Source: an uncultured bacterium
GTDB lineage: Bacteria > Bacillota_I > Bacilli_A > RF39 > UBA660
DNA: 57,671 bases
Assembly (NCBI GenBank): GCA_949284575.1
Contig: CASDWO010000026.1
Span: forward strand, 1-57,671
Direction: 5' to 3'
Shown here: positions 7,737 to 47,426 of the stretch, in pieces
Layout: each line of letters begins with the position of its first letter
Numbering within the stretch: position 1 is the first letter of the stretch
Notes under the pieces: generated by a model
Told to the model about the DNA's origin: nothing
Seen by the model: the letters and a program-made list of their open reading frames with translations, nothing else
Database searches by the model: none
Translations under genes and position numbers: made by a program

Positions 7737-7744
7737 TTAAATAG

Positions 7745-7960
7745 ATTTTCGATGAAGTCTAAAAGTAGAAATATAATTTTTTAAAGAGACTTAGTGGAAG
7801 GTGTGAACTAAGAGGGTTATATTTTGAAGTTACATAGAGGGAGAAAAACGTGACTTAAGCGTTAATTAGAATAAAGTGCATAGTTTCTAGGGATAAGGAT
7901 GGATACAGTGGTTTACCACGGGTTAGCTCGTCCTTAGTTTGTAGAGACTTTTTAATTTTT
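7745..7960 (+). promoter_or_regulatory. T-box leader (tyrosine specifier) controlling tyrS
   Basis: Located between the promoter and tyrS. A UAC codon followed by A lies in a specifier-loop-like context (7831-7834, gaagtTACAtag). The T-box-like sequence acagtggtttaccacgggt (7905-7923) resembles consensus ...GGUGGUACCGCG. Stem taagga(t)gg / c(t)cgtcctta lies downstream. Confidence 0.8.
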
Positions 7961-10886: not shown

Positions 10887-11393
10887 ATGAATAGTGTTTA
10901 TAATGTTAAGGTATATTCTATAATACCAGGAAGAGTAACTTTAACTAGAAAAGATGATAAAATGTTTGATAAATTTGGTAATGTAGTTAATGAAACATGG
11001 GCTAATACTAATAATTGGTATTATCAAGGTAATTTGGATGTTTATTTTAGAAGTGATAAATGTTTGGATTTATATAGTGATGTAAATATTCCTGTTGTTA
11101 AATGTATATCTAAAGGTAAAAATAGTGATGAGAAAATATTTTTAGGTGATGATGCAAGTTTTTACTTTACTTATTTAGAAGATGATGTGCTTAATGATAT
11201 TAAAAATTATCAATTACTTACTAGAGAAGAAGTAAAGGCTATATTGCCTGTTGATGATGAAGATCATCAAGCAAAATGGATTAAAAATTATATGTGGTTA
11301 AAGAAAATATCTGAATATGCAAAACGTACTTATAATGGTGCTTGGATTGATTATTGTCGTCATCAAAGTAAAACTTTCTTTAAAAGTCGTTAG
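10887..11393 (+). CDS. hypothetical protein
   Basis: ATG 10887 follows aaaggagg. 168 aa, no recognised motif. Confidence 0.6.
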   Translation: MNSVYNVKVYSIIPGRVTLTRKDDKMFDKFGNVVNETWANTNNWYYQGNLDVYFRSDKCLDLYSDVNIPVVKCISKGKNSDEKIFLGDDASFYFTYLEDDVLNDIKNYQLLTREEVKAILPVDDEDHQAKWIKNYMWLKKISEYAKRTYNGAWIDYCRHQSKTFFKSR

Positions 11394-11403
11394 GTAAAAA
11401 AAG

Positions 11404-11443
11404 AGCTGCAACGAAATATAATAATTTCGCTACAGCTTTTTTT
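11404..11443 (+). terminator. intrinsic terminator
   Basis: Stem agctgcaacgaaat / atttcgctacagct with two mismatches, followed by T7. Confidence 0.7.
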
Positions 11444-11539
11444 ATATATAAGGAACGTTTTTTTACAAAAAACGAAAATATGTATTGACGAACATATATT
11501 TTATATGGTAAACTTAAATTACAAAGGGAGGTTTGATAT

Positions 11540-11596
11540 ATGAAAATATATAAAGCATATAAATTTAGGTGTGACTTAGTAGGTCGCATAATTTAG
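11540..11596 (+). pseudogene. relic of an IS200/IS605-family TnpB-like gene start (MKIYKAYKFR), interrupted after codon 10
   Basis: RBS aaagggagg followed by ATG. The first 10 residues match the common TnpB N-terminus (M.KAYKFR-[IL]YP). The reading frame then runs into GTGTG intron-like sequence and stops after 18 aa. Confidence 0.4.
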
Positions 11597-11760
11597 CAAG
11601 TGGGAATCCTGTCTAGTAAGGTGAACCCACACCACTAGTAACGAGTCTTGGAGCGAAAGCTGGTAAAAGTTAGTTTAAGCGTATACTTAGGTATTAGGGT
11701 TAGCATTGAGTCTCGAAATATATGCATACAATTAGAGTGCAGATGTAGTCTAAATCACAG
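11569..11760 (+). ncRNA. group II intron 5' fragment (domain I through EBS1), no domain V
   Basis: Starts GTGTG (GUGYG). It is collinear with the 45193 element in blocks (tagcaagtNg, cttggag-cgaa(a)g, ttagNtttaagcgta, gatgtNNt-[EBS1]-cacag). CTAAAT (11750-11755) is complementary to the 6 nt preceding the element (ATTTAG, 11563-11568). The 3' boundary is approximate. Confidence 0.6.
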
Positions 11761-11851
11761 AATGCAATTATTTGAAGGATTAAGGTTGCACTATAAATTA
11801 GTTAATGTAGTTTAGATAATGTTTTAGATGAAAAAATAAACAGATTATTGA

Positions 11852-11939
11852 GTACGGTAGTGACTATCGGAATTTAAGCCTATGGAGAATAGGGAATACT
11901 CTATCTGTGAAGTAGGAATCCTTGGAGGTAACGACAAGG
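11852..11939 (+). repeat. 88-nt conserved core, copy 1 (85/88 identical to 32063-32150)
   Basis: gtacggtagtgactatcggaatttaagcctatggagaatagggaatactctatctgtgaagtaggaatccttggaggtaacgacaagg. It contains the hairpin cctat-ggaga-atagg and is followed by the 9-bp hairpin gaaataaaa/ttttatttc (11942-11963) and T4. Confidence 0.85.
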
Positions 11940-11956
11940 GTGAAATAAAATTTATT

Positions 11957-12643
11957 TTATTTCTTTTGTTCTAAGCTTGTTAGTGATACATCATCTAGAT
12001 CTAGTGATTGATTTTCATTTGCTTCAACAGTAAATTCTATTTTAATTGCAGTAGTTCCAGCAGGAGCTTGTGAAGTAATTAATCTATAGTATGCAAAATC
12101 ACGGTTACTGTTAGTAATATCTTGAGATCTTACCATAATATTACCACCAAGAACATCGCAAGAATTAGTTATAAATATTACATTAGCATTTAGTGATACT
12201 TGTGCACCTTCTCCTCTTGCGAAGAAACTTAATTCATAAAAACAACCTGGTTCTATATTGTTTATTACCTGAGATAGTGTTGAATCATCTTCTATGTTGA
12301 CAGACCAATTTCCTGAATGAACTCTTCCTTGACTGTTTTCTGATGTTATATTGTCTGGATTTGAGAATAACCAGCCAGTTGGTTTATCATCGATAACAAT
12401 TTCCATTCCGCCATTTATTATTAGTTCGCCTCTAGATACACATGAGCATGTACAATTTCTAGTAGGACCAGCAGGGCCTGTTGCACCTGTAGCTCCAGTT
12501 GGTCCAGTAGGGCCTGTTGCTCCTCTTGGACCAGTAGGACCAGTGCAGTTATTAGTATTAGCTAGACATTTAACAACTTCACAAAGGCAGTTATCGTTTT
12601 TATCTTTACACTCTTTATTTTTGTTATCATTATAAAAAATCAT
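11957..12643 (-). CDS. collagen-like triple-helix repeat protein, exosporium/spore-surface type, with a C-terminal carbohydrate-binding-like domain
   Basis: A Cys-rich N-terminus is followed by 9 G-X-Y triplets (GPTGPRGATGPTGPTGATGATGPAGPT), then a ~150-aa beta-rich domain ending ...LDLDDVSLT (CBM4_9-like pattern). RBS aaggagg lies upstream. Confidence 0.75.
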   Translation of the reverse strand: MIFYNDNKNKECKDKNDNCLCEVVKCLANTNNCTGPTGPRGATGPTGPTGATGATGPAGPTRNCTCSCVSRGELIINGGMEIVIDDKPTGWLFSNPDNITSENSQGRVHSGNWSVNIEDDSTLSQVINNIEPGCFYELSFFARGEGAQVSLNANVIFITNSCDVLGGNIMVRSQDITNSNRDFAYYRLITSQAPAGTTAIKIEFTVEANENQSLDLDDVSLTSLEQKK

Positions 12644-30985: not shown

Positions 30986-31951
30986 ATGGAAACAGTAAGA
31001 TTTAGTGAAACACTTAATTTTGATGATGGAAGTATAGAAATTAAATATAAAGGTGTGTCTTTAAGAGAAGATAGTAATGAAAGTGAAGTAAGACGTATGC
31101 TGAGAGATTTTGTAGATAATCATAAGCACGATGATATGTTAAAAAATGTAACAATTTTAAGAACGATATTTAGAGATTATATGGAAGAATCACTTGATGT
31201 TTATTTTTGTGATAAAAATGGTAAAGAAGCAGTTAGGTATGATAATGTATGTGGAGTTAATGGATTTGGTTTTATAAAAGAAGTAAAGAGTGATGCTTCA
31301 TGTAAATATAAAATAAAATATGATTCTGTTTCAGGATTAGAAATAAAATGGTTTAATGAAGCAGGAAATATAAAAAAATATAGTGATGATTTAAGTGATA
31401 TTATGAAATATATTTCTAATTTATCTAATGTAGATCCTATCGTAATTAATGATAATGATAAAGCACTAATAGAAATATATAAGTTATTTTATAAAGAAAA
31501 TCCTGATTTTAGTAGTAAAGATATTAATGTTAAAGTACAAACTATGATGTCTATCTTGGCAGAATTTGGTATAACTTTAGATTGTGATTATTCTTTTTCT
31601 TTAATGACAAAATTAAAAATGCCATTTTCTTTAAAACTTGAAGAGATGGTTCAAAAAATGTATCCATTTGGTGTAGTTGATGAAGTTCAAGATAATATTA
31701 AGTTAGCAGAAGAACCTAAGAAAATAATTAGAATTGTTGGTGATAGTATAAGAGATGTAATTTCTTTAGAAGATGATATGAATGATGCTTTAATAACTAT
31801 TAGTAAGGTTATTTATGCAAGTAGCTATAATCTTTCATCTAATGCTGACATTAGTGAAATAGCAGAATTTACTAATCGTAGTGTTGATGATGTGGAAGCT
31901 AGTGTACAGTTAGTAAAACGTATTGAACATAAAATAAATAAAGATGATTAA
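30986..31951 (+). CDS. hypothetical protein
   Basis: 321 aa, acidic, no motif recognised. RBS agaggagg lies upstream. Confidence 0.6.
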   Translation: METVRFSETLNFDDGSIEIKYKGVSLREDSNESEVRRMLRDFVDNHKHDDMLKNVTILRTIFRDYMEESLDVYFCDKNGKEAVRYDNVCGVNGFGFIKEVKSDASCKYKIKYDSVSGLEIKWFNEAGNIKKYSDDLSDIMKYISNLSNVDPIVINDNDKALIEIYKLFYKENPDFSSKDINVKVQTMMSILAEFGITLDCDYSFSLMTKLKMPFSLKLEEMVQKMYPFGVVDEVQDNIKLAEEPKKIIRIVGDSIRDVISLEDDMNDALITISKVIYASSYNLSSNADISEIAEFTNRSVDDVEASVQLVKRIEHKINKDD

Positions 31952-31956
31952 TTTTT

Positions 31957-32175
31957 GTGTTGACGTTTATATACCCTATATAGTACACTATTGTTACAAG
32001 TTATTAACTAATTTTATGAAATTAGATGAAACTTGTAATTATAGCTTTATATAAAACATAATGTACGGTAGCGACTATCGGAATTTAAGCCTATGGAGAA
32101 TAGGGAATACTCTATCTATGAAGTAGGAATCCTTAGAGGTAACGACAAGGAGAAACAATTTATTTTGTTTTATGT
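31957..32175 (+). mobile_element. miniature paralogue (element C) of relic A: same promoter-like 5' module, 88-nt core and hairpin
   Basis: TTGACG, an 18-nt spacer with a tatata-ccc-tatata hairpin, then TACACT (31960-31989) aligns with 11485-11514. The core at 32063-32150 is 85/88 identical to 11852-11939. The hairpin aaacaa/ttgttt shows a compensatory T:A to C:G change. Confidence 0.55.
32063..32150 (+). repeat. 88-nt conserved core, copy 2
   Basis: Direct sequence comparison with 11852-11939 shows 3 substitutions. Confidence 0.85.
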
Positions 32176-32314
32176 TCAGCGAGAAAAAAATGTTAAATCA
32201 TTTTTGCAAGGGGCCTATGGAATTCTGTGGGGCCCTATTTTTCTTTTGTAATAAATAATATTTGTTATAGACTTAAATCTTTTGCTTTGATAAAATGTTA
32301 ATGGAGATGATTTG

Positions 32315-45192: not shown

Positions 45193-45826
45193 GTGCGCCA
45201 GTTCGGTGTTTAATATATAGTCGGGTGGGAAACCGACATGGTAAGACCTAGCAAGTCGCCATTAGTTAGCCTTGGAGTCGAAGTCGTGAGATTAGATTTA
45301 AGCGTAGGTAAACGAGAATACGAGCCGTAATACGAAAGTGTGAAGCGATTCAGCCTCGTTAAATATAAATAGTGGTAGTCGATGTGTTCCACTTCACAGC
45401 AGACAATAACGGCGATATCGATAAGCGAGATATCGTGAGAGTGCCACCGGGGTCAATAGAGCATGGCGAGTATATCATTGATATATTAAGCATACCTGGG
45501 AGAACTTATAAATTCCTAATTCTAAACGGTTTAAAACACCAATAGTAACAGGTATGCCGAAGCAAGGTTTTGTAAACTAAGTAAGGCAAATGATTTATAA
45601 GTAGTCGGACTAGTTCATAGTAGCAAAGAAGGAAGTAATGACTCTGGAGCGAAGGGACTAGCATATAAGTCGATTTATATATGAAACAATGCTAATGTGC
45701 TAGATGCATTAAGCCAATGCAAAATGAATATATGAAATAACTTGAGTAGCAAATGGCTTATATGAAGAGCCGTATGCGAGAAAACCGCACGTACGGTTCT
45801 GTGAGGGGCGACAGACTTCCTCTCAC
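45193..45826 (+). ncRNA. ORF-less group II intron-like RNA (about 634 nt)
   Basis: 5' GTGCG. Domain V is gagccgtatgcgagaaaaccgcacgtacggttc (45767-45799). A domain VI-position hairpin gtgagggg/cctctcac lies at 45801-45826. EBS1 CCACTT (45389-94) is complementary to AAGTGG (45187-92). No RT/maturase ORF. G+C is clearly above the flanks. The 3' end is approximate. Confidence 0.85.
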
Positions 45827-45876
45827 TAAAGAAAGAAAGAGAGGTGGGGTCGAGTCGTCTACTCGACTGAAGAATA

Positions 45877-47426
45877 ATGCAAGTATTAGATGATAAGCTT
45901 AATAAAGAGTTTATATTTGATCTTTATAGTAAAATTAATTTAGATTTTAAAGAATATGATAAGATTACAAGAAAGCAAATGTTATTATTTATCAATAATT
46001 TTTATAGTGATTATCATAATATAATTGATATTTGTACAGTAAGAGAACTTAAGCTTTTAAAAAGACTTGCTAGTGGTGAAGAGATTAATCATAGCGATGA
46101 AAAATATGATTTTGAGATATCTACTTTAATAAATAAGATGTTAATTGGTTATGATTTTAGTGATGGCTATTTATAGCAGATGAATTTAAAGATAATATTT
46201 TGTTAGCTTTATCTAAAGTTAATATGAAAAATGCTAAAAAACTAGATGAACTTAATGAATTTTTAGTTGGTTTTTGTAAGGTTAATGGTAATGTACTTGT
46301 AGAGACACTTATAAGTATAGCTTTGCAATTATTTGATCATAGTGAAGAGGAACTTAGAGAACATATTGTTAATAATAAATTGTTTAGATACTATGTTATG
46401 CTTGATTATAAATATATAGAATCTTTAGATAGTAAAATGATTGTAGCAATGTATAGTGATTATTATTATGTGATGGATAGATTAGATGAAAATAGGAAAA
46501 AATATGCTTTACTTTCTAACTCAAATTTTGATTTAGATATGTATAAGAATATATTTTATAATAATTTTGATACTAGTAATAAAATAGTTTCTAAATTTCT
46601 TAGAGAAATTAAAGCTTTACCTTTCTTTTGGAATAGAACTTTAGAAGAATTTAGAATTTGTGCTTTATTAAATGAAGGAAGAGAAGAGTTAAAAGAATCA
46701 ATTAGTAATGTACCTATTTTAAAGATGGAACATATAGATTTGACTAATTTTTTTGATTTAATGGATAAAGCTCTTGATGATATGCCTTCAGGTGCTTTAA
46801 ATGGAATGACTCCTAATCAATATTATAAGAAATCTAAAGAAACAATAGAGCATGATATAAAAAAAGAAAAAGAATATGTAAAACAAACTAATGCTCATTT
46901 AAATGAAAAGGATGCTAAGAAATTTTATGATCTATACTTTTCTTTGTTAGAATATGTGAATAATAAATATCATATTAATACTAGTCTTAAAAAAATATAT
47001 AAACAACATTTTTTAGATCCTAATACTTTAGTACCTGTTATAGAATATCTTTTTAGTGATAAAGAAAATATTATAGATTCCTATATAATAGAAAATCCTC
47101 ATAAATTTACTAAAGATGATTTAAATGTAATTAAGAAATTTAAAGATGGTATTAGAGAAACAGTTGTGATTGCAAAGTTTGAAGAAGAATATACTGGTGT
47201 TGTTAGTGATTATAAAGTATATATGATTAAAGGAGTTAATTCTAATATTGATGAGATTATTTCTTATAAACAATTACCTTATTTAGTTATTATGACGCTT
47301 TTACCGTTTAAAGATGTAATTATCTATGATGGTATTATGACAGGTATTCCAGTTGGTTTAGGTGTTAATTTTGCTAAGATGGTAGAAAATGATTATAATA
47401 AAAATATGAAATATTATCATTTATAA
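45877..47426 (+). pseudogene. unknown-function gene split by a -1 frameshift near 46164-46176 (99-aa plus 408-aa ORFs)
   Basis: ORF1 ends ...GYDFSDGYL* at 46176. The second frame is already open from 46164 (WLFIADEFKDNILLALSKV...), so the two read as one ~510-aa protein if 1 nt is removed or a -1 shift occurs. There is no slippery heptamer. Confidence 0.5.

Follow-up and report, generated by a model that had tools for sequence, protein, structure and literature searches.

Group II introns of bacteria are described as usually decaying by loss of the 3' terminus while a 5' fragment persists, and the RmInt1-related remnant FRE652 of Sinorhizobium is a fragmented group II intron without its 3' terminus (PMC4181065, PMC4496777). 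RmInt1 itself has its natural homing site in Sinorhizobium meliloti in the insertion sequence (IS) ISRm2011-2, and its target specificity is diverging (PMC1802570, PMC4496777). IStrons such as CdISt1 combine a group I intron with an IS200/IS605-like element (PMC4227781, PMC10690162). Our literature search returned nothing specific on group II introns that target tnpB.

The locus described here lies in a 57,671-nucleotide contig of an uncultured bacterium, which is called the window below. It consists of the remnant of a group II intron that has lost its 3' part, lying within an element of the IS200/IS605 family that has itself suffered an internal deletion (Table 1). The intron remnant is the subject of the comparisons that follow. 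It resembles FRE652-type remnants in that the 5' part is kept, the 3' part (domains V/VI and the reverse transcriptase, RT) is lost, and the fragment sits in or near mobile DNA and keeps diverging. It differs from them in its lineage (Rfam D1-D4 type 6, in gut Bacilli) and in that the deletion also took most of the host gene, with both breakpoints placed within ~3 nt. The window lineage and RmInt1 share an RT/maturase without an endonuclease domain, the targeting of an IS coding region through EBS-IBS pairing, and variants that have diverged in target. The host here is however an IS200/IS605 tnpB, which encodes an RNA-guided nuclease, and not an IS630-family transposase gene, and the window lineage uses two tnpB sites through EBS-retargeted variants (codon 10, and codon ~369 in relatives). 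Homing into tnpB is a direct parallel of RmInt1 in ISRm2011-2, one that extends known behaviour and reveals no new mechanism, and the decay of the window relic is of an ordinary sort, although it can be resolved unusually well. As in an IStron, a self-splicing-type intron is physically combined with an IS605-family tnpB/guide-RNA element. The group I ribozyme of an IStron, however, forms a composite 5' end and splices out the whole IS, whereas the window holds an independent group II retroelement, dead and nested in the tnpB ORF. An IStron was rejected on these grounds: its ribozyme would be of group I and placed at the left end, and the one found here is a group II ribozyme within the tnpB reading frame.

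Table 1. Features of the relic, its target and related elements in the window.
Feature	Positions	Strand	Basis or remarks
Bidirectional terminator hairpin (11404-11437), T-run and TTTAT target (11441-45)	11404-11445		terminator scan
IS200/IS605-family tnpB-only relic, 526 bp; both ends kept, interior replaced	11446-11971	+	blastn against intact relatives
IS left end with tnpB promoter and RBS AAAGGGAGG (11523-31)	11446-11539	+	promoter scan; ~80% identity to intact left ends
tnpB codons 1-10 (MKIYKAYKFR; codon 10 cut after base 2), the 5' exon	11540-11568	+	N-termini of intact TnpBs
Fragment of a group II intron of ~1918 nt, of which positions 1-200 are kept (5' GUGUG, 5' part of domain I)	11569-11768	+	
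Last 15 tnpB codons and stop (LFEGLRLHYKLVNVV*)	11768-11815	+	tblastn to residues 368-382 of the TnpB of relative L024; alignment
Poorly conserved A-rich spacer, tnpB stop to right-end module	11816-11855	+	alignment
Conserved structured right-end module, 116 nt	11856-11971	+	nine-copy alignment
tnpB-less mini of the same IS family	~31950-32177		left-end promoter TTGACG-17-TATAGT joined to right-end module
Group II intron, complete but without ORF; Rfam type as for the fragment	45193-45867	+	RF02005, 111 bits; RF00029 (domains V/VI), 55.5 bits

Relatives for comparison were obtained by taking the neighbourhood of the adjacent gene ezrA from 80 related genomes. In blastn searches, ~11437-11568 and ~11767-11974 matched the two ends of intact elements of ~1.42 kb (L024, L010 and L013), which carry ~1071 nt extra between the matched ends. 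Identity to these ends was ~80% over 11439-11568 and ~85% over 11767-11971, and the ends of the relic ranged from 80 to 94% identity to intact copies. The motif TTTTT(A/G)T(C/A) stands directly to the left of the IS in 8/8 copies, with unrelated sequence farther out, and the flanks of the copies diverge right after the terminal TGTTC (11971 in the window). Relatives without the IS have the empty site TTTTTTTAT/AGGCTTG, which runs straight into the 3' end of the collagen-like gene. We therefore place the element at 11446-11971, with boundaries accurate to ~2 nt. The target is usually a terminator T-run, and it was not repeated at the right end of the eight copies examined, so that there is no target-site duplication. 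The relic keeps the conserved left and right ends of the intact IS, and the full TnpB ORF with its OrfB_IS605/RuvC and TNB domains is gone; it is therefore a relic of an IS200/IS605-family member, not an intact one. The 11446-11971 element lacks tnpA, and neither TnpA nor an intact TnpB is encoded anywhere in the window. The promoter scan gave TTGACG (11485-90), an 18-nt spacer and a TG-extended TAAACT (TGnTAAACT) ending at 11514 as the tnpB promoter.

The IS ends are multi-copy in the window's strain. Short-read contigs that carry proteins identical to those of the window (L128, L129, L130 and L131; assemblies ERZ16268097 and ERR10610483) break at or just inside both ends. Exact-protein look-ups with two neighbouring genes, which were aimed at a strain-level progenitor, led to contigs that break at or inside the IS ends and leave the interior uncovered.

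Several observations concern the surroundings of the element. This IS has a hotspot at the terminator that adjoins rpsD and the collagen-like gene: in one relative an IS right end lies at the same junction as in the window (L006 2-76), and in two others an intact IS adjoins rpsD, with the collagen-like gene missing (L010 7692-9119, L002 24-236). In the window, the collagen-like GPT-repeat ORF (11957-12643, minus strand) runs into the IS right end, which supplies its four final codons (EQKK) and its stop, and in relatives without the IS (e.g. L017 ~7789-7830) this ORF ends in ...VSLTSL* with the stop overlapping the TTTAT target. The insertion of the IS therefore rewrote the C-terminus of the collagen-like protein. 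Elsewhere in the window, a T-box leader lies at 7743-7938, upstream of a tyrosyl-tRNA synthetase gene; it scored 58.6 bits, under the Rfam gathering score of 93.

In intact relatives the interior of the IS is a 382-aa ORF, MEIYRAYKFRLYPNEEQ...EGLKLHYNLVSLV, with the Pfam domains HTH_OrfB_IS605, OrfB_IS605 and Cas12f1-like_TNB; because all three were found, the ORF is a TnpB. TnpBs of intact homologous copies begin MEIYRAYKFRLYP... or MKIYKAYKYRLYP..., and in the window the 29 nt that code for MKIYKAYKF(R) run from the ATG at 11540 to the ATTTAG at 11563-68. The preliminary description of this DNA had proposed that an intron was inserted after codon 10 of a TnpB-like start and had called for OrfB profiles to be run on relatives. 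Both points held: the homologous IS with matching ends are intact, their 382-aa product carries all three domains, and the same junction recurs in the metagenome-assembled genome (MAG) BRZ_ES__bin111 (see below). The same description had stated that no remainder of tnpB was present. This was wrong, as the last 15 codons (11768-11815) and ~155 nt of IS right end follow directly 3' of the fragment. The 55-aa ORF at 11648-11815 is a chimera.

That 11569-11768 is a group II intron fragment, as had been proposed, was borne out by the Rfam covariance model RF02005 (group-II-D1D4-6), which reached 48.4 bits over 11603-11819 (E 1.6e-12) and so fell 0.6 bit short of the gathering score. From 11769 to 11819 this match extends spuriously, for ~50 nt, into tnpB sequence, and the stub truly contains the first ~170 of the 225 model positions. 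Against full-length introns (L120, L121, L140 and others), 11569-11768 is 86-87% identical over all 200 nt, and the identity stops exactly at 11768. Alignment of the two window copies with each other, the check originally suggested, was not decisive alone: the Smith-Waterman score was only marginally above shuffles (z = 3.5; 6/500 dinucleotide shuffles scored equally high), and MAFFT misaligned the copies beyond ~11700. Of the four sequence blocks said to be shared and collinear, three are homologous, and 'tagcaagtNg' falls at differing model positions in the two copies. Intron identity is proved by the covariance model and the relatives, not by raw alignment of the window copies. For the structural class (A-F, CL, ML), PDB matches to the LtrA, IIC and IIB RTs were equally distant, and the Rfam paper states none for RF02005.

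The stub breaks off within domain I, right after EBS1, and the helices opened at RF02005 positions ~113-144 are left without their 3' strands. No RF00029 or other domain V match was found at E<=10 within 11300-12100, which agrees with the earlier statement that this copy has no visible domain V, and no RT/maturase ORF of the intron lies in 11569-11971. The stub is non-catalytic because several 3' strands of domain I and domains II-VI are lost; judged from its sequence, it can neither fold into a ribozyme nor splice. Its 5' end is GUGUG, where every active relative has GUGCG, and its sequence has diverged by ~14%.

The exon-binding sites of the stub are nevertheless preserved. EBS1 (CTAAAT, 11750-55) pairs with IBS1 (ATTTAG) at 6/6 Watson-Crick positions and EBS2 (TATATGC, 11719-25) with IBS2 (GCATATA, 11555-61) at 7/7, and the chance of a joint 6/6 EBS1 and 7-nt EBS2 match is ~2.5e-5. 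The positions originally read for the ATG, for ATTTAG, for the intron start GTGTG (11569) and for CTAAAT are all correct. Other members of the lineage pair with their own exons through other sequences (EBS1/exon: CGAATA/TATTTG, CAAACA/TGTTTG, CAAAAA/TTTTTG and CAATAT/ATATTG). In an alignment of seven lineage members with five different EBS1 sequences, 97.6% of the EBS1-IBS1 cells were paired, against 72% in shuffled alignments (0/500 reached the observed value) and 31-52% when the sites were slid, and four of the six EBS1-IBS1 pairs showed compensatory change. The claim that EBS1 covaries with its own 5' exon was thus upheld across the lineage as well as in this copy.

Intact homologues of the intron, which the preliminary description had asked for, exist in related gut Bacilli as full-length introns of ~1.9 kb. 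When a 30-nt motif from the intron 5' region was used in a scan, 14 loci came to light in uncultured gut Bacilli that are closely related (Onthousia-like MAGs). One of these copies is the 1918-nt intron of a closed genome (L121 4808-6725; RF02005 147 bits, domains V/VI 48 bits), with a 434-aa ORF that contains RVT_1 and GIIM and no endonuclease domain. This RT family is very abundant in gut metagenomes (3901 matches at E<=1e-100).

The tnpB/intron junction ...GCATATAAATTTAG/GTGCGACTGGG..., in which the intron starts GTGCG, is present at four loci of MAG BRZ_ES__bin111 that have different flanks and different left-end SNPs. Codon 10 of tnpB (site A) is therefore a recurrent insertion site. These loci come from a scan of the genome collection for the junction that gave 34 matches, 30 of them chance matches without intron behind. 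All four contigs break 14-44 nt into the intron, and no full-length codon-10 intron was recovered. A genome scan for the site-A EBS1 variant GTCTAAATNNCAGAATGCAAT had one match, in a Verrucomicrobia MAG and presumably due to chance, and metagenome scans for the junction and for the intron 5' region gave 0 matches each. The exact intron/tnpB junction of the window was not found elsewhere in the genome-collection and metagenome scans.

A second homing site (site B) is tnpB codon ~369, where several other MAGs have ...AACATATTATTTG/intron/AAGGATT.... A search for RT homologues, with contigs taken from the three closest clusters, added more insertions at site B and outside IS, and no full-length codon-10 insertion. 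Full-length introns at codon ~369 were seen in MAGs and metagenome contigs (L121 3700-6929, L127, L115, L118, L122, L124, L125 and L133-L138). Unspliced read-through at this codon yields a TnpB that lacks only its last 14 residues (with GATG* added), so that the insertion may be nearly harmless to the IS even when it is not spliced. In one metagenome contig (L136 493-2412) the EBS1, CATAAA, is unpaired with its own 5' exon TATTTG; the assembly has probably fused two intron copies into a chimera.

The second intron of the window, at 45 kb, had been described as a fragment as well. It is instead a complete ORF-less intron with domains V/VI, and its domain V is the sole one in the whole window. 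IBS1 AAGTGG precedes its start GTGCG (45193), and its EBS1 CCACTT lies in the context gatgtNNt-[6 nt]-cacag, which also surrounds the EBS1 of the stub. The possibility that it occupies the same locus as the L140-L142 introns was rejected, as no similarity of flanks was found between them. By eye, an extended -10 box (TGGTATAAT) precedes the start of its 5' exon by no more than ~12-16 nt, and a ~26-nt insertion lies inside its domain VI. Splicing would join ..AAAGTGG/TGAAGAATAATG.. and, again as read by eye, place a Shine-Dalgarno-like GGTGA 6 nt upstream of the ATG at 45877; because of this motif, the ORF that follows might be translated only once the intron is spliced out.

The deletion junction in the window is GCAAT/TATTTG, in the context ...CAGAATGCAAT/TATTTGAAGG.... 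In comparison with L121, the intact intron runs on at the breakpoint as ...GCAATATTTAAT... and the intact tnpB reads ...ACATATTATTTGAAGG..., which places the breakpoints in imperfect A/T microhomology. A/T-rich microhomology this short says little about the mechanism. On its right side the deletion ends exactly where TATTTG begins, the IBS1 of site B, a coincidence that a simple deletion leaves unexplained.

We consider it very probable that the locus is a three-layer fossil of nested mobile elements, in which an IS was entered by a homing intron and a deletion followed. A tnpB-only IS would have inserted just 3' of TTTAT, after the bidirectional terminator between the 174-aa ORF and the convergent collagen-like gene. 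A mobile, RT-encoding group II intron from a lineage that is common in these gut Bacilli would then have retrohomed into the tnpB coding strand after nt 29 (codon 10), guided by pairing of EBS2/EBS1 with GCATATA-A-ATTTAG. Finally, a deletion of ~2.8 kb, with its junction in the short A/T microhomology, would have removed intron positions 201-1918 (what was left of domain I, all of domains II-VI and the gene for the RT) together with tnpB codons 11 to ~367. In its present form the relic begins with the left end, which carries promoter, RBS and 10 codons; 200 nt of intron follow, and 15 tnpB codons lead into the right end. The insertion of the IS and the homing of the intron are documented by sequence comparison with relatives, some of them intact and some bearing the intron. 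The deletion is evident as an outcome, and its mechanism and the full-length intermediate at this locus are what we infer from that outcome.

Four other readings were weighed against this history or beside it. The resemblance to a group II intron could be a product of chance in AT-rich DNA, a view to which the modest alignment with the 45-kb intron and the Rfam score just short of its threshold lend themselves; the E-value of the RF02005 match speaks against it, and the identity to bona fide full-length introns over the whole 200 nt and the EBS/IBS covariation refute it, so that its probability is practically nil. The preserved 5' splice site, EBS1 and EBS2 with a matching exon, and the promoter upstream, are also what would be expected if the stub were the 5' half of a split intron that works by trans-splicing with domains encoded elsewhere. 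The break, however, falls inside domain I and leaves helices without their partners, the fragment is fused directly to the last tnpB codons, domains V/VI occur in the window in the complete 45-kb intron alone, and the altered GUGUG and the divergence of the stub set it apart from active relatives. Trans-splicing is accordingly highly improbable and close to refuted. The chimera might further have been made at the RNA/cDNA level, by an RT template switch from a 3' IS transcript to a truncated intron RNA and subsequent recombination. The lineage encodes an active-looking RT, and a tnpB-side breakpoint at the IBS1 start of site B is odd for a random deletion. Against such a switch, the guide-RNA-like module seems to start at ~11856 while 11769 is no obvious RNA 5' end, and a microhomology deletion is simpler; we regard this origin as improbable.

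The last reading concerns present activity only and is compatible with the fossil history: the relic could be a non-autonomous, MITE/PATE-like derivative that is still mobilised in trans and still yields a TnpB guide RNA from the retained promoter, while the intron stub is simply carried along. Like MITE/PATE-type derivatives of IS200/IS605 elements, it has kept its left and right ends, which are close to those of intact copies, and lost the nuclease gene. Its 3' module is intact; in nine aligned copies 34 pairs are predicted, 7 of them with compensatory changes, and the module had no match to any Rfam family. We infer that it may be the scaffold of a TnpB guide RNA (omega RNA) together with a terminal hairpin used in transposition. 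The promoter is retained as well, the IS ends are multi-copy in the strain, and tnpB-less minis that consist of exactly promoter and 3' module occur in the window and, in a similar form, at L010 2554-2782. With its IS ends intact the relic may perhaps still be mobilisable in trans, and the occurrence of such minis makes residual activity, be it movement or expression of the 3' guide-RNA module from the tnpB promoter, plausible. Unlike these minis, however, the relic holds a 200-nt intron stub with 10+15 tnpB codons and no second copy of it was found, so that there is no sign that the derivative has moved, and the window itself supplies neither TnpA nor an intact TnpB. A relic that is active today is therefore possible but rather doubtful, and the three-layer fossil is our reading of how the locus arose.

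For annotation, 11446-11971 is a decayed IS with an intron stub and should be labelled neither as a gene nor as a riboswitch or functional ribozyme. The relatives provide a clean natural series of EBS1/EBS2 retargeting within one lineage, with five EBS1 sequences that each match their own exon. They also make clear that IS605-family tnpB genes repeatedly serve as homing sites, which is of some relevance at a time when Cas12 is being traced back to TnpB with its guide RNA. A more speculative view, which at present we think unlikely, is that in gut Bacilli the lineage may have specialised as a parasite of IS that encode TnpB, with at least two EBS-retargeted variants for two conserved tnpB sites (codons 10 and ~369), and that intron-associated deletions like the present one may recurrently turn autonomous tnpB elements into minis with only a promoter and a guide RNA. 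If this were true, the intron would be a player in the life cycle of an RNA-guided transposon, a group II counterpart to the relationship between intron and guide RNA in IStrons.
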